DNA of 32,000 nt from Patescibacteria group bacterium (lineage in GTDB: Bacteria; Patescibacteriota; Patescibacteriia; 2-01-FULL-39-33): the NCBI GenBank assembly GCA_041662745.1, contig JBAZRV010000002.1, positions 120,001 to 152,000 of the forward strand, given 5' to 3'. Position numbers and translations under genes: made by a program. The notes under the pieces are model-generated. The model worked only from the letters and a program-made list of their open reading frames with translations. It made no database searches and was not told the origin of the DNA. This document shows, in pieces, positions 1 to 28,879 of this stretch. How positions within the stretch are numbered: position 1 is the first letter of the stretch; each line of letters begins with the position of its first letter.

Positions 1-2
1 AG

Positions 3-5014: not shown

Positions 5015-6133
5015 ATGAATAAGTCATTGACATTAAAAAAGATAATTAAGAAAATCGGCATTTATCAGTCGCTGCGAAATAGTTGGGAAAAACTCCAATC
5101 TCGAAAATATCGCGATACTTTGTTTTTGATTGAAAACAAAAAAGATCTGCCTCTGCCCAAAGATATTATTTTCGAGCCAACAACCCGTTGTAATTTAAAT
5201 TGTTGCATGTGTCCGCAACGCGAAGAGCGCAAACAACTAAAACCGGATTTGCCTCCCAGCCAAACCAAGGACTTATTGATTAAACTTAAAAAAGAGCTCG
5301 ATATCAAATCAATTAGTTTGATCGGCGGAGAGGTTCTGGTCAGAAGTGATATCTTGGAAATCATAAAGACGCTCAAAGATTTACATATTAAGGTTTTTAT
5401 TTCAACTAATGGAACATTGATTGATGAAAGATTGGCTGGAGAGTTTAATAAATTTAAGAATATTTCCGGCTTGGCTTTTTCTCTTGATGGCTTAAGGGAG
5501 AGGCACAACCAGATTAGGGGCAAGGATTATGCTTTTGATGGTGTTAAACAGGCCGTGGCTTTGCTTAAAGATGATTTTTCTTTGACCATTAACGCTGTAT
5601 TGATGGATGAAAATCTTAATCAGTTGGTGGATTTAGCCCGACAAATCAAGGCTTGGGGGGTGCCTAATTATTCTTTACAGTTTGAAATGTTTTCTACTGC
5701 CGCTGAAGTGGCTGCATCGGCGAAAATACTAGGGTTAGAGAATCAGGAAGATATTGCTGTAGAAATTAAAGAAAATCAGGATTACAGTTTTTCCCAAGAG
5801 GCGATTAGCGCGATTATTGAGGAATTAAATAAAATTCCCGGTTTAGCTTTGATGATCCAACCGCGTCTTTATTCTCGTTTTCCCGAATTTTATTTAAAAG
5901 GAGAATTAAGGCAAAAAGTAAAATTAGATTGCAAGTATGTTAATACCTTGAGAATTAGCGCTCAAGGGAAAATGATTTTTTGTCCTTTTATCAAAAAAAG
6001 TTTTGGCAGTTTATTAACTAATGATATCGCTAAAGTTTGGAATAGTGCTGAGGTGAAAGACTTCAGGCAAAAACTTTATGCTAATAATTTAACGCCGGTC
6101 TGCAAGCGTTGTTGCCGCTTGGGCGCGAAATAA
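5015..6133 (+). CDS. Radical SAM protein with SPASM/twitch-type C-terminal Cys cluster
   Basis: EPTTRCNLNCCMCPQ (CxxxCxxC). The C-terminus has CKYVNTLRISAQGKMIFC (Cx11Gx4C) plus PVCKRCC. Confidence 0.85.
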   Translation: MNKSLTLKKIIKKIGIYQSLRNSWEKLQSRKYRDTLFLIENKKDLPLPKDIIFEPTTRCNLNCCMCPQREERKQLKPDLPPSQTKDLLIKLKKELDIKSISLIGGEVLVRSDILEIIKTLKDLHIKVFISTNGTLIDERLAGEFNKFKNISGLAFSLDGLRERHNQIRGKDYAFDGVKQAVALLKDDFSLTINAVLMDENLNQLVDLARQIKAWGVPNYSLQFEMFSTAAEVAASAKILGLENQEDIAVEIKENQDYSFSQEAISAIIEELNKIPGLALMIQPRLYSRFPEFYLKGELRQKVKLDCKYVNTLRISAQGKMIFCPFIKKSFGSLLTNDIAKVWNSAEVKDFRQKLYANNLTPVCKRCCRLGAK

Positions 6134-6137
6134 TATT

Positions 6138-7274
6138 ATGAAGATTATATATTTAGCTAATTTGCGGTTACCGACTGAAAGGGCCCATGGTTTGCAAATC
6201 ATGAAGATGTGCGAGTCTTTCGCCGAAGCAAAAAATGAGGTGGAATTGGTGGTGCCGCAACGGTTTAATAAAATTAAAGAAGATTATTTCTCTTATTATA
6301 ATGTTAAGGATAATTTTAAGGTTACTAAGTTGCCCTGTTTTGATCTATTGCCGCTCGATCGCTGGTTGGGTGTTTTTGCGTTGTGGTTAGAGCTGACGAC
6401 TTTTTTGCTGGCAGCTAAGGCGTATTTATTTTTTAGGGTTTATGGCATGATTTATACCCGCGAGCCGTTAGTCGGTTTATTTTTTAAGAATTGCATTTTA
6501 GAGGTGCACTCATTGCCCAAGTTTAATTATTATTTTTTCCGTTTAGCTGTTAAGAGGTCTAAATTATTGATAGTTTTAACCGAAGGGATAAAACAAGCGT
6601 TAATCACGCAAGGAATTAGCGCTGATAAAATCATGGTTTCTCCTGATGCTGTCGATTTACAGCAATTTAAAACAGAATTAAGCCAGGCTGAAGCGAGAGA
6701 AAAATTATCCTTGCCCTTAAAATCAAAAATTATCGTTTATACTGGACATTTATATCCCTGGAAGGGAGTTGACGTGTTAGCTGAAGCGGCGTCTTTATTG
6801 CCGGCTGATTGCTTGGTGGTTTTTGTCGGCGGAGTTAAGGAGGATATTGATGAATTTAGAACTAAATATGCCAGCGTAAAAAGTATTTTAATTTTTGGTC
6901 ATCGACCACATCAAGAAATGCCGATTTTTTTGAAGGCGGCTGATGCCCTGGCTTTGCCTAATAGCGGTAAGGAGGAAATTTCCAGAGTTTATACTTCACC
7001 CATGAAATTGTTTGAATATATGAGTAGTGGTACGCCCATAGTCGCTTCGGTTCTGCCGTCATTAAGGGAAATTTTAGACAATAAAAATTCTTATCTAGTT
7101 GAACCGGATAATGCTCAGGCTTTGGTTGATGGTATTAAATATTTATTAAATAATGAAGATATCGGGGGAAAATTAGCAGCTGCGGCTTTGCAAAAAGTAG
7201 AACAATACACTTGGGTTAAGCGAGTAAAAAATATTTTAAATTTTATTAGCACCGCTGATCAGCGATTTAAATAA
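6138..7274 (+). CDS. Glycosyltransferase, GT4 (GT-B)
   Basis: The N-terminus is MKIIYLANLRLPTERAHGLQIMKMCESFA. The C-terminal SPMKLFEYMSSGTPIVAS is typical of group-1 GTs. 378 aa. Confidence 0.8.
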   Translation: MKIIYLANLRLPTERAHGLQIMKMCESFAEAKNEVELVVPQRFNKIKEDYFSYYNVKDNFKVTKLPCFDLLPLDRWLGVFALWLELTTFLLAAKAYLFFRVYGMIYTREPLVGLFFKNCILEVHSLPKFNYYFFRLAVKRSKLLIVLTEGIKQALITQGISADKIMVSPDAVDLQQFKTELSQAEAREKLSLPLKSKIIVYTGHLYPWKGVDVLAEAASLLPADCLVVFVGGVKEDIDEFRTKYASVKSILIFGHRPHQEMPIFLKAADALALPNSGKEEISRVYTSPMKLFEYMSSGTPIVASVLPSLREILDNKNSYLVEPDNAQALVDGIKYLLNNEDIGGKLAAAALQKVEQYTWVKRVKNILNFISTADQRFK

Positions 7275-7295
7275 AAGTAATCATTCTAAATAGTT

Positions 7296-8648
7296 ATGAA
7301 ATTTTTTTTGTTAGTGCCGAATTTTAATCAAGGAAAAAAATCAATTATGAGTGTCAGGGCTAGACAGCCGCTGTCTATGGCGATTATCGCTGCTATATTG
7401 ATTAAAGATAGTCACCAGGTAAAATTACTGGACGCTAATGTTTTAAATTTATCTTTAACGGAGGTTCTGGCCGAGATTGCGGCTTATGGGCCGGATTTTT
7501 TTATTTTGACTTCAACTAAAATTGATCGCTGGGAGTGTCCCAATTCCAATATTGAAAATATTTTTCAGATTATCAATCAGGTTTCAGCTAAGTATAAAAT
7601 TTTAATTGGCAGTCATGGCACTACTATGCCGGAATGGGTATTTGAAAATTGCCAAACAGATTTTATTATTCGAGGCGAACCTGAGTTAGCCGTTCAGAAT
7701 TTGATTATCAGCCTGGTTAGTGGTCAAACTATTTCAAATATCGCCGGCTTATCTTATCGTCAAGGAGAGAAGATAATAAATAATCCCAGCGAAAGAATAA
7801 CTGACTTGGATATTTTGCCACTCCCGGCTTATAATTTATTGCCGATGGCTGAATACTCTTGTAATGATTTTGAAAAGCCTTTTTCAATTGTGATGACCTC
7901 GCGTGGCTGTCCCTATAATTGTATTTTTTGCCTTAAAGCAATGATGCCGGGTCAATATGTTGTTAGAAGTGTTGATAAGGTGCTCGAAGAAATAGAATAC
8001 CTGATAAAAAATTTTCAAATTAAATCTATTTTTTTTCAAGATTGGGAATTTTTTATTGATAGTGACAGAGTCGAAAAAATTTGCTTGGAAATTATTAGAC
8101 GTGGTTTAAAATTCACTTGGGGCGCTAATGCCCGAGCGACGGATATTACCAAAAGCGAATATCTCATGCCTTTAGTTAAGCAGGCTGGTTGCATTCTGAT
8201 TAATTTGGGTATGGAATCTGCCAGTAATCGAGTTTTGGAACGAATTAATAAAAGAATAACTCAAGCTGATTTGCAACAAGCTGTAGATATTTTTAAGATT
8301 CATGGTATTAGTGGTGGTTATTGCGTCCTTTTAAATGCACCAGGGGAGAACCATCAAACGATTCAAGAAACGATTGATTTTGTGGTTAAAAATGATTTAC
8401 AGGTTAAGCAATTTTTGCCAGTCATTCCTTACCCCGGCACAGTCCTCTTTGATCTTATTAAGAAGAAATTTCCTAATCGAATTTTAAATTGGAATAATAT
8501 CGAACAATATGCTGGTTTAATCGAAGTTGAAAGTAAACCTTTTTGGAGCCTGTGGTTTTTAAGAAATTATAAAAATCATCTGAAATATGGCCGAGGCTAC
8601 TGGTTAAGGCCGGTTTTTTGGCGCGAAGTTGTTCTAAAAAATAAATAG
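7296..8648 (+). CDS. B12-binding-domain radical SAM protein (divergent paralog)
   Basis: SRGCPYNCIFC is preceded by a Rossmann-like N-terminal domain. It has variant motifs (IGSHGTT instead of GGPH, RGEPE instead of RGEGE). PYPGT lies in the C-terminal part. Confidence 0.85.
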   Translation: MKFFLLVPNFNQGKKSIMSVRARQPLSMAIIAAILIKDSHQVKLLDANVLNLSLTEVLAEIAAYGPDFFILTSTKIDRWECPNSNIENIFQIINQVSAKYKILIGSHGTTMPEWVFENCQTDFIIRGEPELAVQNLIISLVSGQTISNIAGLSYRQGEKIINNPSERITDLDILPLPAYNLLPMAEYSCNDFEKPFSIVMTSRGCPYNCIFCLKAMMPGQYVVRSVDKVLEEIEYLIKNFQIKSIFFQDWEFFIDSDRVEKICLEIIRRGLKFTWGANARATDITKSEYLMPLVKQAGCILINLGMESASNRVLERINKRITQADLQQAVDIFKIHGISGGYCVLLNAPGENHQTIQETIDFVVKNDLQVKQFLPVIPYPGTVLFDLIKKKFPNRILNWNNIEQYAGLIEVESKPFWSLWFLRNYKNHLKYGRGYWLRPVFWREVVLKNK

Positions 8649-8649
8649 T

Positions 8650-10065
8650 ATGAAGATCGCTTTAATTTTTACACCCTCCATTTACCAAACCAAAGAAACT
8701 ATGCCGCCGCTCGGCTTAGCTTGGTTGGCTGCGGTTTTGCAAAAAAATGGTTTCAACGACGTTTATATTATTGATAGTGTCATTAATAAATACGATAATC
8801 AAAAAATAATCGAATTATTAAAAGAACAAGGCGCTGATCTGATTGGGCTTTCTTTTGGCACGCAAAACCGTTTTTATGCTTTTCAATTAGCAGAACTTAT
8901 CAAAAAAAACTTCCCCTCCGTACCGCTTGTGGCGGGCGGACCGCATGTCACCTTGACTGCTGATGACACCTTAAGGCAGATTCAGTCTATTGATATAATT
9001 GTGCGAGGGGAGGGCGAATTTACTTTTTTAGAATTGATTCAGGCGATTGAGCGGGGAAATGACATCAGAATGATTAACGGCCTCTCTTATCGGAATAGCC
9101 AGGGCGAAATTTTCCACAATACTGAACGAACGCCGATTATCGATTTGGATGTCTTGCCTTTTCCGGCCCGGGAATTGTTGCCAATAAAGAATTATCAGCA
9201 GAAAATTCCATTATCGGATAAAATTTGCACGAGTATGATTACTAGCCGGGGTTGTCCTAATAATTGTATTTATTGTTCTACGGCCAGTCAGTGGGGGCAT
9301 AATATTAGATTTCGTTCGCCCAAGAATATTGTGGATGAGATAGAAATAATTGTTAATAAGTATGGTCTTGAAGGAGTTGGCTTTTTTGACGATTGTTTCA
9401 CTGTTGATAAAAAAAGAGTTATCGCTATTTGCCAAGAGATTATAAATCGAGGTCTAAAAATCGGTTGGTGGTGTGAGGCTCGAGCTAATACGCTTGATCC
9501 TGAAGTTTTGGCTTGGATGAAACGCGCTGGTTGCGAGTATATTGCCATGGCGATCGAGTCCGGCAGTAATGAGGTTTTAAAAAGAATAAAGAAAATGATT
9601 ACAGTTGAACAGGGTATTGCCGCCGCTAAAATGATCCATGCCGTTGGTATTAAGCAAAAAATATTTTTTATGCATGGTTTGCCTGGAGAAACCTATGAAG
9701 ACATTAAAAAAACTGTTTTTTTAAGTCGTTATTTATTAGACCGAGTGGGCGTGGAAGAAGCGACCCAAGGCGTAACTATTATTTATCCGCATACGGAAAT
9801 AGAAACGATAGCTAAGGAATTAAATATCTTGCCCCAGGATTTTTCTTGGAGTCGGATTTTCCATGAGCCGCGTTCGTATCCGCCGCTGATAGTTTCGCAA
9901 AATATGCCGATTTTTGAACAGCCGAATTTGAGTTATGAAAATATTTTTCAATTTGCTCGGCGAGCAAAAATGGAATATTACTTATCGCATCCTCTATTTT
10001 TAGCACGGAAATTATGGAAACATAGAGATAATATCACTAAGTGGTTCACGACTAGAACAGTCTAA
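8650..10065 (+). CDS. B12-binding-domain radical SAM protein
   Basis: MPPLGLAWLAAVLQKNG, AGGPHVTL, RGEGE, SRGCPNNCIYC. It starts 1 nt after the stop of the preceding paralog. Confidence 0.9.
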   Translation: MKIALIFTPSIYQTKETMPPLGLAWLAAVLQKNGFNDVYIIDSVINKYDNQKIIELLKEQGADLIGLSFGTQNRFYAFQLAELIKKNFPSVPLVAGGPHVTLTADDTLRQIQSIDIIVRGEGEFTFLELIQAIERGNDIRMINGLSYRNSQGEIFHNTERTPIIDLDVLPFPARELLPIKNYQQKIPLSDKICTSMITSRGCPNNCIYCSTASQWGHNIRFRSPKNIVDEIEIIVNKYGLEGVGFFDDCFTVDKKRVIAICQEIINRGLKIGWWCEARANTLDPEVLAWMKRAGCEYIAMAIESGSNEVLKRIKKMITVEQGIAAAKMIHAVGIKQKIFFMHGLPGETYEDIKKTVFLSRYLLDRVGVEEATQGVTIIYPHTEIETIAKELNILPQDFSWSRIFHEPRSYPPLIVSQNMPIFEQPNLSYENIFQFARRAKMEYYLSHPLFLARKLWKHRDNITKWFTTRTV

Positions 10066-10072
10066 AAAATCT

Positions 10073-11221
10073 TTGAATATGAATTTTGATTTGTTTAATA
10101 CTTTAAAGAAATTATTGTCATTACCGCTGGCCGGTTGGTTAAGATTGGTTGGTCTTATTTTTATTCGTAAAACCACTAGCCGCGCAGTAGTAGTTTTTTA
10201 TAACGGCAAATTGGGTGATATGGTTTGCTTGACACCGGTGTTAGCCGCCTTAAAAAGTAATTATCCAAATCAGAAGCTGATCGTCTATGCCCGGAATAAT
10301 TTTTTAGATGTTTGGCAGAATAATCCCAATTTGGATGAAATTATAGGTTTCGCTGGGGAGCAAGAATCCGGCCGATTTAGTTGGTTAATTAAACAATGGC
10401 AACGATTAAACTCTTTTCAGATTACTGCTTATTATAATTTGATGAATAATTTCGAAGGTGGGATTTTGGGGTTAATGTTGGCGGCCGATTGCCATTATAC
10501 TGTTTCTACCGAGTTGGATGGCCGGTTATTACGTTTGCTTTATCATTTTTATTCAACGAACGAATATAAATTTGATTGTTTGATAAAAGATTTCTATTTT
10601 GAATGGCTGAAAAAAAATGGTTTGAAGATTGAGGGTAATTTGCGGAATCAACTTTTTTTTCCGGGTGATCAAGATGAGGTGGAAGATTTTTTTTCTGCCA
10701 ACTCTTTAGCCGGGCAAACGGTTATCAGCGTCATTATTTCTTCTGGTAAGGATTATAAAATTTGGCCTTTGAGCTATTGGTTGGAATTATTAAAAAGATT
10801 ACAGAATGAATATCAGCCGGTTTTTTTGCTGTTTGGGTTGAAAGAGGATGAAAATTATTTAGAACAGATCAAAACTGAGATTGGTGTTAATGTTTATTTA
10901 ATTTTGGGTAAAGATTTAGAAATTATTCCTTACTATTTAAAAAAAAGTCACTTGTTTATCGGCGTTGATACTGGCTTGTTGTATATGGCTGATGCTTTGT
11001 CAATTCCCGTGGTTGATATTTTGGGACCCTGTGATGATAATAACCAACGGCCGGAAAATACTTATCGCTTGGTGACTGATCGGGCCGTTTGCCGGCCGCA
11101 ATGCAAAATGTTGTACAATGCGCCGATTAATAAAACTGAAGTAGCGGCTTGTTTTTTAGCAATCAGGCCGGAACAAGTTTTCGGGGCTTGTCGGGATTTG
11201 TTATTATTAGTAATTAGGTAA
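10073..11221 (+). CDS. Glycosyltransferase family 9 (heptosyltransferase-like)
   Basis: GKLGDMVCLTPVLAALKSNYP and IGVDTGLLYMADALSIPVVDILGP match the two GT9 hallmark segments. The start is TTG at 10073 or ATG at 10079. A roughly 35-aa N-terminal extension contains a hydrophobic stretch. Confidence 0.8.
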   Translation: MNMNFDLFNTLKKLLSLPLAGWLRLVGLIFIRKTTSRAVVVFYNGKLGDMVCLTPVLAALKSNYPNQKLIVYARNNFLDVWQNNPNLDEIIGFAGEQESGRFSWLIKQWQRLNSFQITAYYNLMNNFEGGILGLMLAADCHYTVSTELDGRLLRLLYHFYSTNEYKFDCLIKDFYFEWLKKNGLKIEGNLRNQLFFPGDQDEVEDFFSANSLAGQTVISVIISSGKDYKIWPLSYWLELLKRLQNEYQPVFLLFGLKEDENYLEQIKTEIGVNVYLILGKDLEIIPYYLKKSHLFIGVDTGLLYMADALSIPVVDILGPCDDNNQRPENTYRLVTDRAVCRPQCKMLYNAPINKTEVAACFLAIRPEQVFGACRDLLLLVIR

Positions 11222-11238
11222 AATATTAATTAAAATAA

Positions 11239-12597
11239 ATGAAATTATTTTTTAATAAAATAAAATCAGTAATAAAAGCAGTTTGGGATTATTTTTGGAA
11301 ACTTAATTTTTTTCGCGATCTTTTATTTTTACAATGGGGCTCATTTTGGGATTTAGGCTTGTCGCTGATGGCTTCAGTTGTTTATGCCCACCTGTTGGGA
11401 GTCGGGACTTATGGCGATTACGCTTTGATTTTCGCCCTAGCCGCTTTAATCGGGTTATTTATGGATTGGGGGACTGGTTATGCCACCTTGACTTTACTTG
11501 CTGAAGCCTATACCAGAAAAAACCGTTCTGAGATTAAAGATATTATTACTTATTTTTTAAAGCTCAATTTGATTATTACGGTCACTTTCGGTTTGGTGGC
11601 AATAATTTTTACTCCGACTTTAGCGGGTTGGTTTTACCATAACCCACTGATTGGTCAGTTAGCCCGGTTGGTTATTATTGGCTCTATTTTTAAAATTTTC
11701 TTTTCCTTGCTTATCAATTTGTTGCAAGTCATGCGTAAAATTAAGTATTTGACGATAATTGAGAATGTAAATAAATTTTTTGCGGTTGTTTTGCCGGTTA
11801 TCCTGGTCTTAATGGGTTTTGGTTTGGCCGGCATTGTTTACGGCTATTTATTGACGATCATCGGCTCCATGGTTTTTTCTATTTTAGTTTATCGCAATTT
11901 TTCTCGACGCAATCCCTTGGTGCCTTCTTTCTCTGAAATCATTGATAATTTTTTTAAGGTTAAAATAAAAAAATATTTTAAATTCGGATTTATTTTGGCT
12001 ATAGATAAAAATTTGTCTAATTTATTCGGTATTTTGCCGCTGATAGTTTTGGGTTACTTGGCCGCTTCCACTGATGTAGCTAATTTAAAAATCGCCTTGG
12101 CTTATTTGGCCCTGCCGAATGGTTTTTTAAATCCGATCAGCCGCTTATTGCAAGTGCAGCTGCCTAAGGCCAAAGTCGCCGGCATCAAAGATTTAAAAGT
12201 TAATTTTTATAAATCATCTTTTTATGCCGGCACAATTTTCATTTTTCTGACTTTGGGATTTTTATTTTTCGCCCCGTTTTTGATTAAATTGGTTTATGGC
12301 AAGTCCTTTGCCGCCAGCGCTCAATTAGTCTATCCACTTAGTTTGAGCGTGATTTTTTCCGGTTTTGCAATCGGCTTCGGTTCCATTTATCGGACGATCA
12401 ATAAGAATATTTTTGCCATCGCTATCAATTCAGCCAGTATTCTATCCGGATTTATCGTGTTGTTTTTCGCCTTAAAATCGTTGTCTCCATTAAATAGCGT
12501 CGTCTTACTGATAGTCTATTGGTCTCTGTTTAATCTTATCAGCCATCTTCTTTACATCAGGGGCTACTTTTTAAAACTAAGTTCCCAAAAAATATGA
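11239..12597 (+). CDS. Polysaccharide/oligosaccharide flippase (MOP/Wzx family)
   Basis: 452-aa polytopic membrane protein with roughly 12 hydrophobic segments, typical of Wzx-type flippases. It sits among GT genes. The stop overlaps the next start (ATGA). Confidence 0.75.
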   Translation: MKLFFNKIKSVIKAVWDYFWKLNFFRDLLFLQWGSFWDLGLSLMASVVYAHLLGVGTYGDYALIFALAALIGLFMDWGTGYATLTLLAEAYTRKNRSEIKDIITYFLKLNLIITVTFGLVAIIFTPTLAGWFYHNPLIGQLARLVIIGSIFKIFFSLLINLLQVMRKIKYLTIIENVNKFFAVVLPVILVLMGFGLAGIVYGYLLTIIGSMVFSILVYRNFSRRNPLVPSFSEIIDNFFKVKIKKYFKFGFILAIDKNLSNLFGILPLIVLGYLAASTDVANLKIALAYLALPNGFLNPISRLLQVQLPKAKVAGIKDLKVNFYKSSFYAGTIFIFLTLGFLFFAPFLIKLVYGKSFAASAQLVYPLSLSVIFSGFAIGFGSIYRTINKNIFAIAINSASILSGFIVLFFALKSLSPLNSVVLLIVYWSLFNLISHLLYIRGYFLKLSSQKI

Positions 12598-14709: not shown

Positions 14710-14717
14710 ATTTTATT

Positions 14718-15806: not shown

Positions 15807-15830
15807 ACTATTGGCCGCTATTTTAAACTT

Positions 15831-19331: not shown

Positions 19332-19372
19332 CCGAAGGAAGCGGCAGGAGATAAAATGAAATTATAACTGGC

Positions 19373-20931: not shown

Positions 20932-20938
20932 TTTTACC

Positions 20939-21901: not shown

Positions 21902-21906
21902 GATAT

Positions 21907-22554
21907 ATGATATTTCAAAATAAATATTGGGAGCGGAGAGTTTTAAATAAAAGAAGGCAACCATTTAACGAAGTAGTACGGTGTTATGTTTTTCCAAAAA
22001 TATGTCAAATTTTAAAAGTAATCCCGATAAATAAAAATACTCAACTTTTAGATGTGGGGTGTGGAAATGGATTCTATAGTTATTATTTTAATGAGATATG
22101 CGATGTTACTGGAATAGATTATTCCCATGAACTTATTAGACAAAATCCGATAAAAAAAACAATTCTTATGGACGCAAATGATATTAGGTTTGCTGATGAT
22201 TCTTTTGATATAACATTCTGTGGCGCGTTACTTCATCACGTGTTAAATGAAAAAAGAGTTATTAATGAAATGAAAAGAGTGTCTAAGGAGTATGTTATTA
22301 TTATCGAACCAAATAGGAATAATCCATTTTTATTTTTATTTTCACTTTTTGTAAAGGAGGAAAATAAAGCATTGAGGTATTCTATGAAGTATTTAAAAAA
22401 AATGGTTAAAGATTGTGATTTAAAAATAATATCAACATTCTCACATGGATTAATAGTGCCAAATAAAACTCCAAGAATTTTATTACCAATATTAAAATAT
22501 TTTGAGATTAAATATCCATTAGGTATGATGAATATACTAATTTGTAAAAAATAA
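21907..22554 (+). CDS. Class I SAM-dependent methyltransferase (Methyltransf_11-like)
   Basis: LLDVGCGNGFYS (motif I), DANDIRFADDSFDITFCGALLHHV, and KEYVIIIEPN. The gene is markedly more AT-rich than its neighbours. Confidence 0.8.
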   Translation: MIFQNKYWERRVLNKRRQPFNEVVRCYVFPKICQILKVIPINKNTQLLDVGCGNGFYSYYFNEICDVTGIDYSHELIRQNPIKKTILMDANDIRFADDSFDITFCGALLHHVLNEKRVINEMKRVSKEYVIIIEPNRNNPFLFLFSLFVKEENKALRYSMKYLKKMVKDCDLKIISTFSHGLIVPNKTPRILLPILKYFEIKYPLGMMNILICKK

Positions 22555-22577
22555 ACGCAAAGGTATTTTTTTATCAA

Positions 22578-23279
22578 TTATTTTTTACCCAAACAAATTA
22601 TGTTTGGGTAAAAAAATAATTGAGTCGGCAGATCATGGATTTCAATAGAATGCCAACCGGTTTTCTCTAATATTTTTTTGTATTCTGAACTTCGATAATA
22701 ATGCGGTTTATTTATTCTATGGCCAAAAATTTTGCTGGAGGCTTTGTCGGCGGAGAAGAAATGGAAAAAAGCAACAAGCTTTTCAATGATGAGCGAGCTG
22801 GAGATGGAAAGCAGATAACGGAAGAAGCGATCCCGACTCATGGTTTTAATAATAATGACCCCATTCGGTTTGGTTTTTTTTCGGCAATCTTCTAGCATAT
22901 TCAGGACTTCTTGGCGGGACATTAAAACCTCCACATCAATGACGATTGTGGCGTCGAACTCCTCTTCTTGCAGACTCCCGACTTCCGTTTGGATAAATGT
23001 TAAATTTTCAGGCTTGAATGATACCTGATTCGCTTGCTTGATGCGATCGGCTGAAGGGTCAATGGCCACTACTTTTAAGGTGGGTCGTTTAAAAGCGAAA
23101 AAATAGGAAAAAACTCCGAACCCGCAACCCAGGTCAAGCAATTTTCCGCTGGTCGGCACGTATTGGGAAATTGTTTCCAGCGGCGTTGTCGTGAATCTGA
23201 CGAAGGTAATTAATTTTTCTACCGCTCCCAATCCGAGATAATTATTTTTTATCTGTTGGTATTCTTTTTGGAATCTCAT
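22578..23279 (-). CDS. Class I SAM-dependent methyltransferase
   Basis: LLDLGCGFGVFSYFF (motif I), VVAIDPS, NGVIIIKT. It is the last gene of the minus arm. Confidence 0.8.
   Translation of the reverse strand: MRFQKEYQQIKNNYLGLGAVEKLITFVRFTTTPLETISQYVPTSGKLLDLGCGFGVFSYFFAFKRPTLKVVAIDPSADRIKQANQVSFKPENLTFIQTEVGSLQEEEFDATIVIDVEVLMSRQEVLNMLEDCRKKTKPNGVIIIKTMSRDRFFRYLLSISSSLIIEKLVAFFHFFSADKASSKIFGHRINKPHYYRSSEYKKILEKTGWHSIEIHDLPTQLFFYPNIICLGKK
22581..22615. repeat. Perfect 15-bp inverted repeat with 5-nt loop at the convergence point of the two arms
   Basis: TTTTTTACCCAAACA (22581-22595), AATTA, TGTTTGGGTAAAAAA (22601-22615). It lies 27 nt after the plus-strand stop and inside the last ~12 codons of the minus-strand methyltransferase. 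Confidence 0.6.
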
Positions 23280-23305
23280 AAATAATATTTTTCTAAAATG
23301 AATTT

Positions 23306-24733
23306 TTAGGCTTTTTTAATCATAATTCTAACGAAAATCCTAAATCCTTCAAACATTGTTTTTAAGGAATCAAAAGAGTTTATTTGTTTAAGCTTCCGCC
23401 AAACATAGATCGGCCGCAAATAGAATTCGCGGAAACCTCTTTTCTGCCAATAAACCAATTCTTCCGCCGTTAAGTTTTTTTGCACCAGTAGCGGCGACGT
23501 GTTAGTAAGGGGAGCGAAGGCTTCCCAGGGCGTATCGGAAGCGATAAAGCCTTCATCTTTGGCGTAGTAATACAGATCTGAGCCAGGCACCGGGCAGGTG
23601 ATAAAAAAGGTCGCATTATCTAAATCCAGGCTTTTGGCGAAATTGATCGTCTCTTTAATGGTTTCTATCGTCTCGCCGATGTTACCCAGCATGAAACTGG
23701 CATGAGCCAATATATTGTGGTGTCTTAAGATCGCCACTGCTTGCCGCCCCTTGTCCGTGGTGGTTTGCTTGCGCATAATGTCTAATATTTTCTGCGAGCC
23801 GGATTCTAGTCCTAAGGAAATTTTCTTACAGCCGGCCTTTGACATGATGGAGGCTAATTCATCGTCGATGGTATCGGCTCGGGAAAAACAGATCCAAGCA
23901 ATCGGCAGTTTTTTGTCTATGATTTTTTGGCAGACTTCAATCGCTCTTTTTTTGTTTAAAGTGAAATTATCGTCCAAAATGCTGAATTCTTTGATATTGT
24001 ATTTATTGATGCATTCTTCAATTTCAGCCAGCAAATTGTTAGCGCTGCGATAGCGTAAACGGCGATTCCAAATGCTTTTGGAAACACAATGGATACAGTT
24101 GTGGGCGCAGCCGCGGCTGGTTTGGATCGGTGAGCATTGCTCCTCAGTCAATTTTTTAGTTGGGGCGGAACGGTAAAGTTTTAAATCAAATAAATCGCGG
24201 GCTGGAAAAGGGATTTCATCAAGATTTTCAATCATTGGCCGTGGCAGATTGCCTATAATTTTGCCGTCGCGCTTAAAATACAAGCCGGAAATATTTTCCC
24301 AATCCGTCCGTTTGTCTTTGACGGCTTGGACCAATTCAGAAAAAGTCACTTCGCCTTCCCCAATGACAGCAAAATCTACGAATGGGTTGGTTAAAACTTC
24401 AATTGGCAGAATCGTCGGATGAGTGCCGCCTAGTATGGTGACGCAATCCAGTTTTAATTCATCTTTAATGATTTGGCAAATTTTAAAAACGTGATTGACG
24501 GTTGGCGACAGACAAGTAAAGCCGACGACGTCGGGCCGCTCATGCGCAAAATAATCCTTTATTTCCTTATAGCCGATGCCTAAGGCTTCAGTATCTAATA
24601 TTTTAATTTCGCAATCAACCTTATTGCGCAAATAACCAGCTAAGTAAGCCAGATTAAAAGGCATTGCATGGCCGCCGGATTCTTTCATGCCTTCAAAGTT
24701 TATGTAGGGCGGATTTACCAAGATAACTTTCAT
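23306..24733 (-). CDS. B12-binding-domain radical SAM protein
   Basis: MKVILVNPP, LGGTHPTI, IGEGE, SRGCAHNCIHC, and a C-terminal FYLRPIYVWRKLKQ. Confidence 0.9.
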   Translation of the reverse strand: MKVILVNPPYINFEGMKESGGHAMPFNLAYLAGYLRNKVDCEIKILDTEALGIGYKEIKDYFAHERPDVVGFTCLSPTVNHVFKICQIIKDELKLDCVTILGGTHPTILPIEVLTNPFVDFAVIGEGEVTFSELVQAVKDKRTDWENISGLYFKRDGKIIGNLPRPMIENLDEIPFPARDLFDLKLYRSAPTKKLTEEQCSPIQTSRGCAHNCIHCVSKSIWNRRLRYRSANNLLAEIEECINKYNIKEFSILDDNFTLNKKRAIEVCQKIIDKKLPIAWICFSRADTIDDELASIMSKAGCKKISLGLESGSQKILDIMRKQTTTDKGRQAVAILRHHNILAHASFMLGNIGETIETIKETINFAKSLDLDNATFFITCPVPGSDLYYYAKDEGFIASDTPWEAFAPLTNTSPLLVQKNLTAEELVYWQKRGFREFYLRPIYVWRKLKQINSFDSLKTMFEGFRIFVRIMIKKA

Positions 24734-24745
24734 AATTATATTTTA

Positions 24746-26158
24746 TTATATTTTGAGCAGTTTCAGACCCGCTTTAAAATTATTTTTTAAATTATTCCAG
24801 TTTCTTATTTCTTTTAATCTTCGCCAGATATAGCGGGGAGCTAAGTAATATGAACGATAAGCTTGAATTAATGTTTTAAATAACTGTTCGCGAGTAAAAT
24901 TTTCTTCCCAGGCCGGTGGATGAAAATCTGCCTGAGGATGTTTAGAAAATTCACGCCAATAATCCTGTTTGATAATGCCTTCTTTTAGGCCTTTTAAATA
25001 CAAGTCAGTCGCTGGAAAAGGGGTAAGTACGGAAAAGTGCACATAATCAGGAAATAGTTCTTTAGCTAGTTTAATTGTTTCTTTAATATCATCTTCGGTT
25101 TCCGTTGGTGAGCCGATCATGAAATAACCCGCTGTCTCAATGCCGGCTTTTTTGGTTAATGCAAAAGCTTTTTTGATCATCGGAATTGTAATGCCTTTTC
25201 TTAAAACATTAAGAATTTTTTCGGTGCCGGCTTCTACTCCATAATGGATTCTGGTGCAACCAGCTTTTTCCATTAATATTAGTAATTCTTCATCAACCGT
25301 ATTAACTCGAGCGCGAATATCCCAATTGAGGATTATATTTTTTTCCATTATCAATCGGCAGATGTCTACCACTCTTTGACGATCAATCGTAAAAGTATCG
25401 TCGTAAATAAAAACCTCTTTAATGCCCAGGGCGGCGATCTCGGCCAATTCCTGGACGACATTTTGTGCTGAACGTGCTCGGAAAATTTTGCCTAAATGGG
25501 GCCGATCGCAAAAGAGACATTGATAAGGACAGCCACGGGAAGTGAACATTGTGGTTGTCGGATTTTTTTGCGCGATGATGGAATAGTATTTTTTGTAAGG
25601 GGTTAAGGTACGCGCTGGAAATGGCAGATCGTCTAACTGCATAATCAAATCTCGGCAACCGTTATTAATGATATTACTCGCTTGTCTGAAGACAATACCC
25701 TTAATCGTTGGCCATTGTTCCGGTTGTTGGAGATTATTAATTAAATCATAAAAAGGCTGTTCGCCTTCACCCAGGATTAAAAAATCAATTTCTGGATTAG
25801 CCATCGTTTCTTCCGGGTAAATATTGACATGCGGGCCGCCGAGGACAATGGGAATTTCTGGCTGAGCCGCTTTAATTTTTTTGGCTGCCATCAAAACATC
25901 AATAATCGTGAAAGTCATAGCGGTAATGCCAACGAGTTCTGGTTTTTCTAATTTAATGATTTCTGCTAGCGCATCAAGATTGATTTTTTCTACTGGGCAG
26001 TCGATAATTTTTACTTCATGGTTAGAATGTTTCAATAGGTAGCCAGCCAGATACATAAGTCCTAGTGGTGGTAAAAAATCCATACCCGATTCTAGCTCCT
26101 TAGGCATATCGCTTTCTATAATGTGTTGAATGGGGGGATTAATCAAGAGTATTTTCAT
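24746..26158 (-). CDS. B12-binding-domain radical SAM protein
   Basis: MKILLINPP (ATG at 26158; an in-frame TTG at 26173 is the ORF-track start). LPPLGLMYLAGYL, LGGPHVNI, LGEGE, SRGCPYQCLFC, and a C-terminal YYLAPRYIWRRLKE. Confidence 0.9.
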   Translation of the reverse strand: MKILLINPPIQHIIESDMPKELESGMDFLPPLGLMYLAGYLLKHSNHEVKIIDCPVEKINLDALAEIIKLEKPELVGITAMTFTIIDVLMAAKKIKAAQPEIPIVLGGPHVNIYPEETMANPEIDFLILGEGEQPFYDLINNLQQPEQWPTIKGIVFRQASNIINNGCRDLIMQLDDLPFPARTLTPYKKYYSIIAQKNPTTTMFTSRGCPYQCLFCDRPHLGKIFRARSAQNVVQELAEIAALGIKEVFIYDDTFTIDRQRVVDICRLIMEKNIILNWDIRARVNTVDEELLILMEKAGCTRIHYGVEAGTEKILNVLRKGITIPMIKKAFALTKKAGIETAGYFMIGSPTETEDDIKETIKLAKELFPDYVHFSVLTPFPATDLYLKGLKEGIIKQDYWREFSKHPQADFHPPAWEENFTREQLFKTLIQAYRSYYLAPRYIWRRLKEIRNWNNLKNNFKAGLKLLKI

Positions 26159-26987
26159 AGAGGTATTTTTCAATTGATTGGCAATCGTATGAGTTTAATA
26201 AATAAATTAATTTTTTCCAACTATTCTTAGTATTGAAAAATTTTATGATTTTTTTTATGATTGGCATTGAAATATCTGGCGGTTTGGCTAGGAAATCAAA
26301 GGGATGAAAATGGATAGTGGTTGCACCTTGAGTGGTCTTTTTTGTTAACATTTTTTTAAAAATTTTCCAAGGTGTAATTCTTATGTAGATACCGCCGGTC
26401 ACTGGCCAATTAAGAAGTGACCCGCTATATACGGCCAAAGGAAACTCGTATAGATGTTTGTTTATTAAATAGGGCAATCGCGGCGCTTTCTTGATACCGT
26501 AGGTGCTGTTTGGAAAAATCAGGGACGTGAGTCTTGGTAATTTTAGCGGAAAAACAGAGGAGTCATATCTTAACTGGTTGTCTTCAAGCACTTTTATGAC
26601 CCAATTTTGGTTATCATTAGTTAAAGAAAAATTAACAGCGCGATGACCCAGTACGGCCTTTCCGGTTAAAGAAAGTATTTTTTCTTTCATGATCTTAATT
26701 TCTTGATCAAAGTTTTGATAATTCTTTACCCAAAGTGGGCGATGATCAAAGGAGTGAATGGCAATTTCGTGTCCATGCACAGCGAGTTTTTTTATCATCG
26801 CCGGTTCTTGTTCAATAACTTTCCCAGTGACGAAGAAAGTCGCAGTCGCTTGGTTGGATTTAAGAGCGGCAATCAGTTGATCGACAAATTCTTCTAAATG
26901 TTCAGTTTCTGATCCATTAAGATGGGGTTGGAGGGATAATGATTCAAACCAGTATTCAAGATCAAAAGTCAGAATGAGTTGTTTCAT
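26139..26987 (-). CDS. Polysaccharide deacetylase family protein (CE4-like)
   Basis: LTFDLEYWFE at the N-terminus, ATFFVTGKV, HGHEIAIHSFDH (H-S-x-x-H), GHRAVNFS. It resembles the FDVEDYF-type CE4 subgroup. Confidence 0.75.
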   Translation of the reverse strand: MKQLILTFDLEYWFESLSLQPHLNGSETEHLEEFVDQLIAALKSNQATATFFVTGKVIEQEPAMIKKLAVHGHEIAIHSFDHRPLWVKNYQNFDQEIKIMKEKILSLTGKAVLGHRAVNFSLTNDNQNWVIKVLEDNQLRYDSSVFPLKLPRLTSLIFPNSTYGIKKAPRLPYLINKHLYEFPLAVYSGSLLNWPVTGGIYIRITPWKIFKKMLTKKTTQGATTIHFHPFDFLAKPPDISMPIIKKIIKFFNTKNSWKKLIYLLNSYDCQSIEKYLYENTLD

Positions 26988-26999
26988 AAGAGCTTTTCT

Positions 27000-27875
27000 T
27001 TAGCGGTAGATTTCTCTTCTTAAGGCGGCAATCTGATCGGCTAAAAGTCCAAAAAAGAAAATAATAATAGCGGATAAGACAACTAAAATAGTACTTTTGG
27101 CGATGTTATTCATAATTAATCCGGCAATTAGCATAATTAATCCGGTTAGCCCCAAAAGCAGGCCGATTGGCAGGAAAAATCTAAGTGGGGAAAAGAGCAT
27201 TGTTAGACGCATGACCAGGATTAGGTAAGTAAAAAATTCCCTGGGCTTAACCATGCTTTTGCCACCGCCTCGTTTGTCGATTTGGATTGGAATAAATTTT
27301 ACATTAAGCCCTTCTTTTATGAAAGCGAAAAGGGAAGTCGTAGAGCAAGAAAAACCATTAGGTAGAATGTGTGAGAACCTAAGAAATTCATTTTTTTTGA
27401 TCAACCTTAAACCGCAATTAAAATCAGAAATTTTTTTGTTTAAAAGGTATATCGCTAACCAATGTATAAGTTTTTTTCCGGGTTGCCTTAGCCAGGGGCC
27501 TTGGTAGCCGACGCGTTCACCGGAAATCAGATCGAAATTATCCATAAAGGGAACCATTTCTTTAATGTATTCCGGGCGATGTTGGCCGTCTGCATCAAAA
27601 AATATTAGCCACTCGGACTGGGCAGTTTTGGCGCCGGTTTTGAGCGCAGCACCATAACCCTTATTGTAGGGTTGAACGATTATTTTTATATCGGTAATAT
27701 TTTTTAAAATATCCGAAGTATTGTCAGTTGAAGCATCATTGACGACAATAATCTCGAAATTTAATGACAAATTGTTGATGGAATTTTTAAGCCCCTCGAT
27801 AGTTTTGCCGATCGTCTCCGCCTCATTGTAGGCAGGTATAATGATTGAAAGGGATTTTTCTGATGTTTCTGGCAT
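27000..27875 (-). CDS. GT2 polyprenyl-phosphate glycosyltransferase (GtrB/ArnC/DPM1-like)
   Basis: LSIIIPAYNEAETIGKTI, VVNDASTDNT, FFDADGQH, and two C-terminal transmembrane helices (LFSPLRFFLPIGLLLGLTGLIMLIAGL..). This is the architecture of GtrB-type enzymes. Confidence 0.85.
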   Translation of the reverse strand: MPETSEKSLSIIIPAYNEAETIGKTIEGLKNSINNLSLNFEIIVVNDASTDNTSDILKNITDIKIIVQPYNKGYGAALKTGAKTAQSEWLIFFDADGQHRPEYIKEMVPFMDNFDLISGERVGYQGPWLRQPGKKLIHWLAIYLLNKKISDFNCGLRLIKKNEFLRFSHILPNGFSCSTTSLFAFIKEGLNVKFIPIQIDKRGGGKSMVKPREFFTYLILVMRLTMLFSPLRFFLPIGLLLGLTGLIMLIAGLIMNNIAKSTILVVLSAIIIFFFGLLADQIAALRREIYR

Positions 27876-27883
27876 AATAATTT

Positions 27884-28879
27884 TTAGGATTTATTAAATT
27901 CAACATGCCAACCCATAAAATCAGATTGACTTAGTGAACAATTCTGGCATAGCTTATATTTTTTGCATAAACCATCTTTTCTAACTTGTTTTGCTTCGGG
28001 GCTGAAGAATTGTTTCAACAATTTCGATCCTTTAATATTAGGCATTTTGACATCGGTATTCACATCAATACAGCAAAGTCCCAGATCGCCATTCCAGCAA
28101 ACAACGGCCTGAGTCAGCGGTACGGTGCAGACGGTTTTTTTGATTTTTGATTTTTTTCGTAAATATTTTTCATTTTTTGGCAGTAGATACTGGTATTTAT
28201 CACGCATCTCCAGTGTTGTCACCGAACCCAAGCTTAAGGATTTAAATTGGATGCTGTCAGCCCCAATGGATCGTGCCCAATCCAGGATTTTAGTATTTTC
28301 ATTTTCCGAAAACGATGTTAATAGGGATTGAATACAAACGCTCGGATACTGACGATTCAAGTTGCGTTTTATTGTTAAGAAATTTTCAATATTTTGTTTA
28401 ACTGTTTCAAAATTAGAGCCAAAACGGTAGGCCTCATGTGATTCTTTAGTGGCGCCATCAAGGCAGAGATGAATTAATTTTAAATCCGCCGCTATTATTT
28501 TTTTTGATAATTCTTCTGATAGCATCATGGCGTTGGTGCTTAAGAAGGTGTCATGACTATGCTGGCTGGCATAAGCAATAAATTGATCGATTTGAGGATG
28601 AAGCAATGGTTCGCCGGCAAAAATAAAAGTTATTCGCGGCTTATCTTGAAATTCTTTAAATTCGTCAATAATTGATTTATACATTTCAAAATCCATAAAA
28701 CCTCGTTCGCGGTTCATGGCAAAGTTCGTGGGACAGACCGGACAACGCAGATTACAATTATTTGTCACTTCAATCGCAATATCCTTAGGCGACTTGTCAA
28801 AGTTGCTTAATGGATAAAAGTTAGCCATGAGGCCAGCTATATCCCAAAAAAATTGAGATTTTTTAAGCTGTTTTATCAT
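27884..28879 (-). CDS. Radical SAM protein with SPASM-type C-terminal Cys cluster
   Basis: EVTNNCNLRCPVCPT (CxxxCxxC). The C-terminus has CTVPLTQAVVCWNGDLGLCC (Cx12Gx4C) plus GLCKKYKLCQNC. Confidence 0.85.
   Translation of the reverse strand: MIKQLKKSQFFWDIAGLMANFYPLSNFDKSPKDIAIEVTNNCNLRCPVCPTNFAMNRERGFMDFEMYKSIIDEFKEFQDKPRITFIFAGEPLLHPQIDQFIAYASQHSHDTFLSTNAMMLSEELSKKIIAADLKLIHLCLDGATKESHEAYRFGSNFETVKQNIENFLTIKRNLNRQYPSVCIQSLLTSFSENENTKILDWARSIGADSIQFKSLSLGSVTTLEMRDKYQYLLPKNEKYLRKKSKIKKTVCTVPLTQAVVCWNGDLGLCCIDVNTDVKMPNIKGSKLLKQFFSPEAKQVRKDGLCKKYKLCQNCSLSQSDFMGWHVEFNKS

Follow-up and report, generated by a model that had tools for sequence, protein, structure and literature searches.

Two probably distinct radical SAM cassettes in a cell-surface glycan locus of a Patescibacteria genome

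The window analysed here, a stretch of 32,000 nucleotides (contig JBAZRV010000002.1, forward-strand positions 120,001 to 152,000), comes from a Patescibacteria genome of 1.0 Mb and forms the core of a cell-surface glycan locus of about 45 kb. In window coordinates the locus extends from roughly -10.4 kb to +34.5 kb, and close homologues carry the label Candidatus Buchananbacteria. Genes lie on two convergent arms and are referred to by their lower coordinate. Family calls were scored against Pfam gathering cut-offs, and the gene positions and families of the preliminary description were confirmed, with all ORFs in place and thresholds passed. B12-binding and Radical_SAM domains are found together in 7296, 8650, 19483, 23306 and 24746 (the last two on the minus strand) and in the piece 36-1415, and Radical_SAM with SPASM in 5015, 14718 and 27884 (minus). 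Polysacc_deac_1 is present in 3591 and 26139 (minus). The glycosyltransferase (GT) 6138 is GT4-type (Glycos_transf_1), while 27000 (minus) and 13753 are GT2. Class-I methyltransferase (MT) matches were obtained for 21907 and 22578 (minus), and a weak one for 4351 (22.9 bits, cut-off 21.2). Despite the six B12-domain enzymes in the window, a corrinoid adenosyltransferase was not found in the genome.

The plus arm begins with the C-terminal B12-binding radical SAM domain of an MT-GT4-B12 fusion (1..1415, Pfam B12-binding and Radical_SAM). The piece 36-1415 is not a stand-alone gene but the C-terminal third of this 1183-aa protein. The protein's start lies 2136 nt before the window begins (ORF 117864-121415 on contig C2, in an open frame of 1196 aa), and its middle portion resembles GT4 1422. 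Further along the arm are a Wzx-type (MOP) flippase (11239..12597, Pfam Polysacc_synt; orthologues of 68-74% in G001, G002 and G008) and a conserved block of GT2, SPASM radical SAM and PMT-like GT-C genes (13753..17603, Pfam). The pairing of this third SPASM gene (14718) with GT2 13753 holds, and their orthologues (SPASM 68-69%, GT2 59-60%) are adjacent in G001 and G002 as well. The B12-binding radical SAM gene 19483 (19483..20931, plus, Pfam) is a long branch with no close orthologue among relatives in the B12 tree. An initiating polyprenyl-phosphate glycosylphosphotransferase (PGT; 28950..30299, minus; Bac_transf 226 bits, TIGR03025 362.8 bits, over cut-off) and a GtrA-family small membrane protein (30396..30827, plus; PF04138 112.6 bits) lie near the far end.

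Cassette P occupies 1422-11221 of the plus strand and reads GT4-GT4-CE4-MT-SPASM-GT4-[B12 7296]-B12 8650-GT9. Without 7296, the block has orthologues on three unrelated contigs: L031 and L032 keep the gene order, and L033 has part of the block. It opens with two GT4 (GT-B) glycosyltransferases (1422..3594, Pfam), whose orthologues hold the same position on all three contigs at 33-45% and 41-52% identity (33-39% and 44-52% in L031 and L032). The CE4 deacetylase (3591..4346, PF01522 98.8 bits) belongs to a PgaB/IcaB-like subfamily, these being its best NCBIfam matches, under cut-off, and has orthologues of 43-50% in L031 and L032. The divergent class-I SAM methyltransferase (4351..4998, Methyltransf_11) has orthologues in the same position in L032 (53%) and L033 (41%); the L031 methyltransferase gave no BLAST match to it. 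The SPASM enzyme (5015..6133, Pfam) represents a small family with 44 homologues at E<=1e-20. Its orthologues in L031 and L032 (49-50%) sit between the methyltransferase and a GT4, and that in L033 follows the methyltransferase without a GT4 orthologue next to it. The GT4 (GT-B) enzyme after the SPASM gene (6138..7274, Pfam) has orthologues of 49-50% at the equivalent site in L031 and L032.

The core B12-binding radical SAM enzyme of the plus block is 8650 (8650..10065, Pfam), with orthologues of 63-66% in L031 and L032 and a homologue list headed by orthologues at 53-89% identity. A GT9 gene lies directly 3' of these orthologues in L028, L029, L031, G001, G002 and G008; here it is the heptosyltransferase-family enzyme 10073..11221 (PF01075; NCBIfam heptosyltransferase models match under cut-off). 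The B12-binding radical SAM 7296 (7296..8648, Pfam) is an extra copy beside 8650 in this genus only, with orthologues of 72-75% in G001, G002 and G008 and none beside the 8650 orthologues of L028, L029, L031 and L032. In G001, G002 and G008, the closest relatives, cassette P is rearranged, with a SPASM domain of 29-31% identity fused to GT-C and the 6138 orthologue four genes off.

Cassette M lies mainly on the minus arm. It corresponds to a widespread operon, GT2-CE4/DUF3473-B12(24746)-flippase-like-SPASM-MT, in rearranged form. The operon appears in L024 as PGT-GT2-CE4/DUF3473-B12-LPG_TM-SPASM-MT and is also kept in L025, L026, L027, G019 and G025 (GT2 52-65%, B12 56-71% identity). The divergent SPASM radical SAM enzyme 27884..28879 (Pfam) falls in the clade accompanying 24746 orthologues in the tree; its orthology is weak, with only 21-37% identity to the SPASM proteins of canonical operons. 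The GT2 (27000..27875, Pfam) is of the polyprenyl-phosphate-sugar synthase type, with AglJ, ArnC, PgfS and PpgS as best NCBIfam matches, all under cut-off, and two C-terminal TM helices (TM segments 237-279). Its orthologues (53-65%) adjoin those of 24746, being adjacent or separated by the CE4 or one other gene in L022, L024, L025, L026 and L027. The CE4 deacetylase (26139..26987) carries DUF3473 and is of the XrtA-type subfamily (PF01522 and PF11959; TIGR03006 152 bits, under cut-off), with orthologues of 49-52% in G019 and G025. The core B12-binding radical SAM 24746 (24746..26173, Pfam) likely starts at 26158, as described before: this ATG lies five codons downstream of the TTG (26173) that opens the longest ORF, and it fits the 470-aa database form. 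The enzyme has 4881 homologues at E<=1e-30, with 56-75% identity among the 119 matches listed besides the window's own. Its facultative companion 23306 (23306..24733, Pfam) has B12-binding radical SAM orthologues of 77% in G019 and 59% in G014 and L026. The last minus-arm gene is a UbiG-like class-I methyltransferase (22578..23279, Pfam and NCBIfam).

Cassette M also straddles the convergence point, with three plus-arm members. The class-I methyltransferase 21907 (21907..22554, Pfam and BLAST) has a 58% orthologue inside the canonical operon of L024. The LPG_synthase_TM, flippase-like membrane protein 20912 (20912..21901, Pfam 132 bits, TIGR00374 over cut-off) has its domain fused to the 24746 orthologue in G019 (797 aa) and encoded downstream of 24746 orthologues in L024 and L027. 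The polytopic 574-aa membrane protein 17607 (17607..19331) has about 10 hydrophobic segments, and PMT_2 matches sub-threshold in four of six family members. Its top 11 Foldseek matches are all GT-C (ArnT, AglB/STT3; E about 1e-3, from a low-confidence model of pLDDT 62.7) and homologues of 34-37% adjoin 24746 orthologues in L024 and L027. 17607 probably has a GT-C fold, and it is a member of the extended minus-type module.

Both cassettes draw on the same five families: glycosyltransferase, CE4, class-I methyltransferase, SPASM radical SAM and B12-domain radical SAM. The preliminary description took them for one and the same cassette, but cross-arm members are never closest relatives. Cross-arm identity is 25-36% for the B12 enzymes and 23-29% for the SPASM enzymes, and cassette genes resemble orthologues in other genomes much more closely (49-77%). 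A B12 tree of 70 sequences places 7296, 8650, 23306 and 24746 in strongly supported orthogroups (orthologues 68-77%), and 36 and 19483 form long branches that lack close orthologues. The paralogy is similarly deep elsewhere, with the three SPASM proteins in three deep clades, 5015 in its own, and the CE4s in two deep subfamilies (path length 6.5). The distribution of the two cassettes is independent: G014, G019, G025 and G028 carry 24746-clade genes and no 8650 orthologue. Each cassette recurs in its own order, CE4-MT-SPASM-GT4-B12 for P versus GT2-CE4-B12-flippase-SPASM-MT for M. The suggested reusable module is real in that both sets recur with orthologues on unrelated contigs, but it is not one module.

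The cassettes are alike at family level only and are not copies, therefore the toolkit was probably assembled twice. The favoured reading, held with reasonable confidence, is of two different, independently conserved tailoring cassettes, with the toolkit either recruited twice or diverged to family level. Of the two origins proposed earlier, repeated recruitment fits better than duplication. An ancient en-bloc duplication of a GT-CE4-MT-SPASM-B12-B12 cassette before the lineages split, with one copy swapping its GT fold, is unlikely. It would account for the five common families and for the core order of SPASM, GT and two B12 genes, which does occur in both arms. When labels were shuffled over 26 genes, this order arose twice anywhere with P about 6e-4, and the P for finding "SPASM, GT, 0-1 gene, B12, B12" in each of the two arms was about 2e-4; these values are generous as the pattern was defined post hoc. 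The shared order is seen in this genome only, however; in other genomes a single B12 gene is usual at this point of the plus block, and SPASM usually follows B12 in the minus block. The B12 tree is more permissive, since a single clade of 7296 and 24746 survives an AU test (p=0.29, with a poorly supported deep backbone), and 8650 and 23306 share a loose 18-row clade (SH-aLRT 87). Nonetheless, reciprocal best B12 matches in the window are within an arm (23306 with 24746) or to 19483. Moreover, GT4 (GT-B) and GT2 (GT-A) are non-homologous, the CE4s differ in architecture and show no BLAST similarity, and methyltransferase 4351 gave no BLAST match to 21907 or 22578. The plus-arm B12 pair is also recent, because the plus block of genomes outside the genus lacks 7296.

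The tandem B12 genes are separated by 1 nt (8649) and 12 nt (24734-24745), as first described. The proposal that they act as heteromers is unlikely to hold as an obligate pairing because partners vary between genomes: 8650 orthologues occur with B12 enzymes other than 7296 or with none, and 24746 can have an orthologue where 23306 has none.

Domain fusions bear on what the cassettes may do. Besides the MT-GT4-B12 and B12::LPG_synthase_TM proteins above, relatives encode GT-C::SPASM (854 aa), B12::MetW-MT (719 aa), SDR-B12-aminotransferase (1213 aa) and GT4::CE4 (704 aa) fusions. Radical SAM fusions to GT4, GT-C, methyltransferase, flippase-like and NDP-sugar enzymes fit sugar tailoring coupled to transfer. 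The nearest solved relatives, AprD4 for 24746 (E 9e-30) and BtrN for 27884 (E 4e-14), act on sugars or aminocyclitols. A precedent is HpnI/HpnK/HpnJ, in which a GT, then a deacetylase, then a B12-type radical SAM enzyme act on a lipid-linked amino sugar (PMC13459092). From context, the substrates would be lipid-linked amino sugars and the radical SAM chemistry C-methylation, oxidation or rearrangement.

From sequence, one toolkit set is best read as working with cytoplasmic GT-B enzymes and the other with a polyprenyl-phosphate-sugar donor for GT-C enzymes. Cassette P and its GT-B enzymes would extend a polyprenyl-diphosphate-linked oligosaccharide begun by PGT 28950 and flipped by Wzx 11239. 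The cassette M operon would load a HexNAc onto polyprenyl phosphate and deacetylate it, after which radical SAM enzymes and methyltransferases would remodel the lipid-linked sugar. It would then be flipped and passed to a GT-C enzyme outside the membrane, a scheme like Arn/Gtr-type logic. In this bacterium with a tiny genome, the two cassettes probably serve a kind of surface-sugar chemistry that is as yet unstudied. The product may be a glycolipid in which a membrane lipid carries the sugar, as for HpnI/K/J; this overlaps with the favoured reading.

It is for peptide maturation that SPASM enzymes are best known. It is quite improbable that the radical SAM enzymes act on non-sugars with the GTs as mere neighbours, whether the substrate is a scavenged membrane lipid, methylated on its head group or chain and flipped by the LPG_synthase_TM protein, or an unrecognised peptide, with the SPASM enzymes in a RiPP-like role. 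Weak NCBIfam SPASM matches include many peptide-maturase families, the B12 enzymes match the lipid-biosynthesis model TIGR04072 (about 125-149 bits, under the cut-off of 360), and the LPG_synthase_TM domain derives from a lipid flippase/synthase. However, fusions link radical SAM domains with GT4, GT-C and an NDP-sugar dehydratase/aminotransferase, AprD4 and BtrN modify sugars, no precursor gene would fit into the short intergenic gaps, and a polyprenyl-P-sugar-type GT2 and a carbohydrate deacetylase are constant companions.

Across 11 related loci, 70 of 298 ORFs are B12 genes. B12-B12 tandems show no enrichment (11 observed versus 15.3 +/- 3.0 expected), B12 genes are next to a GT only mildly more often than expected (47/70 versus 39.9 +/- 3.8), and all six classes fall in both arms of the window with a shuffle P of only about 0.03. 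Such figures, and a pattern defined post hoc, could suit a coincidental clustering of common glycan families in a crowded locus, the likeness of the arms having no modular meaning, but this is very unlikely given that each block has orthologues on unrelated contigs from different samples, several neighbours are single fused proteins in relatives, and GT2 27000 and B12 24746 orthologues stay together in five loci. SPASM genes adjoin or are fused to a GT in 12 of 14 cases versus 7.7 +/- 1.8 expected, a mild enrichment (P about 0.02) among kin that are non-independent.

The genes and family assignments of the preliminary description were all borne out at their coordinates by the ORF list and Pfam scans. 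By Pfam, and with genes named after their start coordinates, the window encodes six radical SAM proteins with a B12-binding domain (B12 proteins; the piece at 36-1415, 7296, 8650, 19483 and, on the minus strand, 23306 and 24746). It also encodes three SPASM radical SAM proteins (5015, 14718 and 27884 (-)), two CE4 deacetylases (3591 and 26139 (-)) and three class-I methyltransferases (4351, a weak match, 21907 and 22578 (-)). The glycosyltransferases concerned are GT4 6138, GT2 27000 (-) and GT2 13753, and the gaps of 1 nt and 12 nt within the tandem B12 gene pairs agree with the ORF list. The first B12 gene (window 1-1415) encodes the C-terminal end of a longer protein, a 1183-aa MT-GT4-B12 fusion (G000:C2:117864-121415) whose gene starts 2136 nt upstream of the window. 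All six B12 proteins exceed both Pfam cut-offs, for the N-terminal B12-binding domain (PF02310) and the radical SAM core (PF04055), and C205, C209, and C212 of the CxxxCxxC cluster motif are invariant in their six-way alignment. The SPASM domain (PF13186, cut-off 21.5 bits) scores 33.2 bits in 5015, 24.1 in 14718 and 32.1 in 27884. The radical SAM proteins have no predicted TM segments, with one marginal hydrophobic stretch in 24746.

GT2 27000 consists of a GT2 domain and two C-terminal TM helices. Its best NCBIfam matches are AglJ, ArnC, PgfS, and PpgS, every one below its cut-off. The locus also holds a PGT (28950) scoring over the TIGR03025 cut-off, a Wzx flippase, a GtrA protein, a flippase-like LPG_synthase_TM protein and PMT-like polytopic proteins, of which 15831 passes PF02366 marginally (23.7 vs. 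22.7 bits). A candidate O-antigen-ligase/Wzy-like protein lies upstream, judged by sequence appearance alone. The family of 17607-19331 is conserved and polytopic (572-611 aa), has no above-threshold Pfam match and travels with the GT2-CE4-B12 operon. The top fold matches of 17607 are all GT-C enzymes (ArnT, AglB/STT3), at marginal E-values and from a low-confidence model (pLDDT 62.7), while a profile search of the family against PDB sequences gave no match. Together with sub-threshold Pfam matches, these weak fold matches hint that 17607 may be GT-C-like.

It had been proposed that the same six-function cassette occurs on both convergent arms, with a core order of SPASM, GT and a tandem B12 pair. 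All-versus-all BLASTP does not support this. Identity among the window paralogues is 25-36% for the B12 proteins and 23-29% for the SPASM proteins, the latter confined to the core. Neither CE4 matches the other even at E=10, methyltransferase 4351 matches neither of the other window methyltransferases, and GT4 6138 and GT2 27000 differ in fold. The best in-window matches pair genes of one arm (23306 with 24746) or involve 19483, and are never cross-arm. Members of the two arms are thus not each other's closest relatives, as orthologues elsewhere are 49-77% identical vs. at most 36%, or no similarity, across the arms.

Trees were then built with the equivalent loci of eight relatives. In the B12 tree (70 sequences), 7296, 8650, 23306, and 24746 fall in strongly supported orthogroups whose members are 68-77% identical, and 36 and 19483 have no close orthologue and sit on long branches. 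Long branches separate the groups, 7296 is placed apart from 24746, and 8650 and 23306 have in common only a loose 18-member clade (SH-aLRT 87). The three window SPASMs represent three deep clades. The CE4 tree comprises two deep subfamilies, one PgaB/IcaB-like and the other with DUF3473, resembling the XrtA-type deacetylase. On the B12 tree alone the B12 genes may go back to a very ancient duplication, because its deep backbone is unresolved and the AU test does not reject 7296 and 24746 as a single clade (p=0.29). Recent duplication is ruled out by in-window identities of ≤36% vs. 49-77% to orthologues elsewhere. The earlier interpretation stands in so far as the modules are real, with recruitment favoured over duplication, but not as one cassette present twice or as a meaningful B12 tandem. 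What the present analysis adds is that the two look-alike cassettes are distinct, separately conserved and tied to different glycosyltransferase folds.

Label shuffles over the 26 window genes give P ~2e-4 for the core order in both arms, ~6e-4 for its occurrence twice anywhere, and ~0.03 for all six classes in both arms, for patterns that were defined post hoc. Across 11 loci, SPASM genes beside or fused to a GT are mildly enriched (12/14 vs. 7.7 expected), as are B12 genes beside a GT (47/70 vs. 39.9 expected), the relatives being non-independent in both counts. Modularity is supported strongly by the recurrence of orthologous blocks on unrelated contigs and by fusions, rather than by these statistics. 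Tandem B12 pairs are ruled out as a conserved or enriched feature, with 11 observed in the 11 loci vs. 15.3 ± 3.0 expected and partners that vary between genomes. That such pairs form obligate heteromers is also unlikely, because the core B12 genes 8650 and 24746 are each found elsewhere without their window partner. The tandem arrangement is thus incidental, a further addition of this analysis.

Orthologues of the plus-arm genes (cassette P, 1422-11221) recur with their order kept or almost kept on two unrelated contigs, L031 and L032, and partly on a third, L033. L031 reads GT4, GT4, CE4, MT, SPASM, GT4, B12, GT9, and L032 reads GT4, GT4, CE4, MT, SPASM, GT4, an extra SPASM and B12. Identities on these two contigs are 33-39% for GT4 1422, 44-52% for GT4 2557, 43-50% for CE4 3591, 49-50% for both SPASM 5015 and GT4 6138, and 63-66% for B12 8650. 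Methyltransferase 4351 is 53% identical to its L032 counterpart and has no BLAST match to the L031 methyltransferase. L033 carries a partial plus block with a 704-aa GT4::CE4 fusion (L033:10998-13112 (+)). SPASM 5015 belongs to a small family (44 homologues at E≤1e-20), several members of which share contigs with 8650 orthologues. The tandem partner 7296 is absent from the blocks of all three contigs and lies beside 8650 in this genus only. Contigs L028 and L029 keep the 8650 orthologue with GT9 downstream but have a different B12 gene upstream. A heptose link was considered for the B12-GT9 block: slightly downstream of this pair L028 and L029 carry heptose-pathway-like genes (SIS, PfkB, CTP_transf/HAD, transaldolase; L028:11677-14234 and L029:15117-19241), of which tblastn found none in the window's own genome, although GT9 (10073-11221) is present there.

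The minus gene set likewise recurs, on contigs L024-L027 and in genomes G019 and G025. Homologues of 24746 number 4881 at E≤1e-30, and the 119 matches listed besides the window's own are 56-75% identical. The canonical operon is clearest in L024 and consists of PGT, GT2, CE4/DUF3473, B12, LPG_synthase_TM, SPASM and MT, with variants in L025, L026, L027, G019 and G025. In minus-type contexts identities are 52-65% for GT2 27000, 56-71% for B12 24746, 23-52% for CE4 26139 and, where it is present, 59-77% for B12 23306. Methyltransferase 21907 is 58% identical in L024 and the membrane protein 17607 is 34-37% identical in L024 and L027. The SPASM gene of L024-type contexts lies downstream of B12 and the flippase-like gene, therefore the shared order of SPASM, GT, B12, B12 is peculiar to this genome. 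SPASM-GT adjacency is ruled out as the conserved core of the module by the same position.

Members of the minus-type module (cassette M) straddle the convergence point: the plus strand carries 17607, 20912, and 21907, the minus strand those from 22578 to 28879. That the module crosses this point is also new here, and the functional unit is not the minus arm, because the canonical operon includes genes from both sides. A scan for promoters and terminators around the convergence point found sites no commoner than in shuffles. The two cassettes are distributed independently, with genes of the 24746 clade present without an 8650 orthologue in four genomes (G014, G019, G025, G028).

In relatives, radical SAM domains are fused to GT4, GT-C, a MetW-type methyltransferase, a flippase-like domain, and an NDP-sugar dehydratase with an aminotransferase. 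In G019, a 24746 orthologue of 68% identity is fused to the flippase-like LPG_synthase_TM domain (797 aa, L009:16267-18660 (-)), a fusion also found in the protein database entries P0004 and P0023. G001 encodes an 854-aa PMT_2 (GT-C)::SPASM fusion (L002:719-3283 (-)) and a 719-aa B12::MetW-type methyltransferase fusion (L002:7234-9393 (-)), and both occur likewise in G002 and G008 of the same genus. A 1213-aa protein (L025:13712-17353 (-)) joins an NDP-sugar epimerase/dehydratase, a B12 radical SAM and a DegT-type aminotransferase; this fusion and the GT4::CE4 fusion of L033 both lie on unrelated contigs carrying cassette orthologues.

Among known systems, hopanoid side-chain tailoring by HpnI/HpnK/HpnJ begins with the transfer of GlcNAc to a lipid by a glycosyltransferase (GT2); the amine is then released by a deacetylase, and the lipid-bound amino sugar is remodelled by a radical SAM enzyme with a B12 domain (PMC13459092). 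The cassette in the window has the same succession of GT, deacetylase and B12-type radical SAM, which by analogy would be the closest documented logic for the cassettes. HpnJ (TIGR03471) is the best or second-best NCBIfam match for all six B12 proteins, at 250.2 bits for 19483 and 233.6 bits for 24746, which do not reach the cut-off of 577.6. No match to squalene-hopene cyclase (PF13243) was found anywhere in the genome, therefore this is not a hopanoid pathway. HpnK belongs to the YdjC family, whereas the window deacetylase is a CE4 enzyme and the cassette adds SPASM, methyltransferases and a flippase-like protein.

The Arn and Gtr systems (ArnC/ArnD/ArnE-F/ArnT and Gtr), in which extracytoplasmic glycosylation has three components, offer a possible second parallel. 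The window GT2 has C-terminal TM helices and most resembles polyprenyl-phosphate-sugar synthases, a CE4-family enzyme would act after it, and the locus has GtrA and LPG_synthase_TM membrane proteins and candidate GT-C-type polytopic proteins. The window cassette differs in including radical SAM enzymes, as we know of no radical SAM step in either system. GT2 27000 scores 75 bits against ArnC (NF007986), short of the cut-off of 529. Aminoglycoside pathways, with AprD4, BtrN and B12-type C-methyltransferases of the GenK/GenD1 kind, likewise bring together GT4, deacetylase, N-methyltransferase and radical SAM enzymes that act on amino sugars. Among solved structures, 24746 comes closest to AprD4 (E 9e-30), over the radical SAM core only, and 27884 to BtrN (E 4e-14), over the N-terminal 100 residues; both AprD4 and BtrN modify sugars. 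The six B12 proteins score 61-131 bits against the AprD4 family (NF033070; 24746, 126 bits), which does not reach the cut-off of 500, and the setting here is a surface-glycan locus with Wzx and PGT rather than a secondary-metabolite cluster. With Wzx/Wzy O-antigen and capsule loci it shares an initiating PGT, Wzx, many GT4 and GT2 genes and a G+C content below the genome mean, but differs from them in carrying nine radical SAM genes. The literature searched was found to describe neither loci like this one nor radical SAM tailoring in loci of the O-antigen/capsule type. At family level the genes qualify as class B radical SAM, SPASM and CE4, while the equivalog tests for HpnJ, ArnC, and AprD4 all failed.

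Read from the protein families, the substrates and chemistry of the cassettes may be as follows. In cassette M, a polyprenyl-phosphate HexNAc would be made and then deacetylated, the deacetylated lipid-linked sugar would be remodelled by radical chemistry and methylation, and the product would be flipped and donated via a GT-C enzyme. In cassette P, the same kinds of enzyme would act on sugars that GT-B enzymes add to a PGT-initiated, Wzx-flipped oligosaccharide, or on NDP-sugar donors. As independent cassettes are drawn from one toolkit and fusions occur, radical SAM tailoring of lipid-linked amino sugars is probably a recurring design selected in these bacteria, not one genome's accident. 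A tentative generalisation, which we hold to be slightly more doubtful than credible, is that the surface glycans of Patescibacteria follow a rule of one glycosyltransferase, one radical-tailoring set, with the toolkit of deacetylase, methyltransferase, SPASM and B12-type radical SAM joined on separate occasions to enzymes of the GT-B, GT-A (polyprenyl-phosphate-sugar) and GT-C types. If so, a single 45-kb locus would install on lipid carriers several different radical-modified amino sugars (e.g. C-methylated, oxidised or ring-rearranged); we know of no surface glycan with such chemistry. Two portable units lend themselves to testing: GT2 27000, CE4 26139, B12 24746, the flippase-like protein and SPASM for cassette M, and CE4 3591, MT 4351, SPASM 5015, GT4 6138 and B12 8650 for cassette P. 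Such units, expressed in a laboratory host, could show which sugar chemistry is performed by B12-domain radical SAM proteins, of which thousands are uncharacterised.

The genome (G000) is 1.02 Mb in size and 98% complete, and a search across it for corrinoid adenosyltransferase (PF01923, PF02572) gave no match. It encodes at least six radical SAM enzymes with a B12 domain, and how they obtain cobalamin without a recognisable corrinoid adenosyltransferase is a question the locus raises. Close homologues carry the labels Patescibacteria or Candidatus Buchananbacteria. Related B12 genes are present in 23 of 41 related genomes, in 4 of 8 of the same genus and in 16 of 24 genomes of this family, while 24746 orthologues occur in only 2 of 301 sampled genomes of the phylum at E≤1e-130. 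The 24746 module is patchy, concentrated in this family and scattered elsewhere. The window (G000:C2:120001-152000) has a G+C content of 37-40% and the locus one of 33-40%, vs. a genome mean of ~44%, with the minimum around methyltransferase 21907-22554, and 9 of the genome's 23 Radical_SAM matches fall within the locus, which resembles a variable accessory island.
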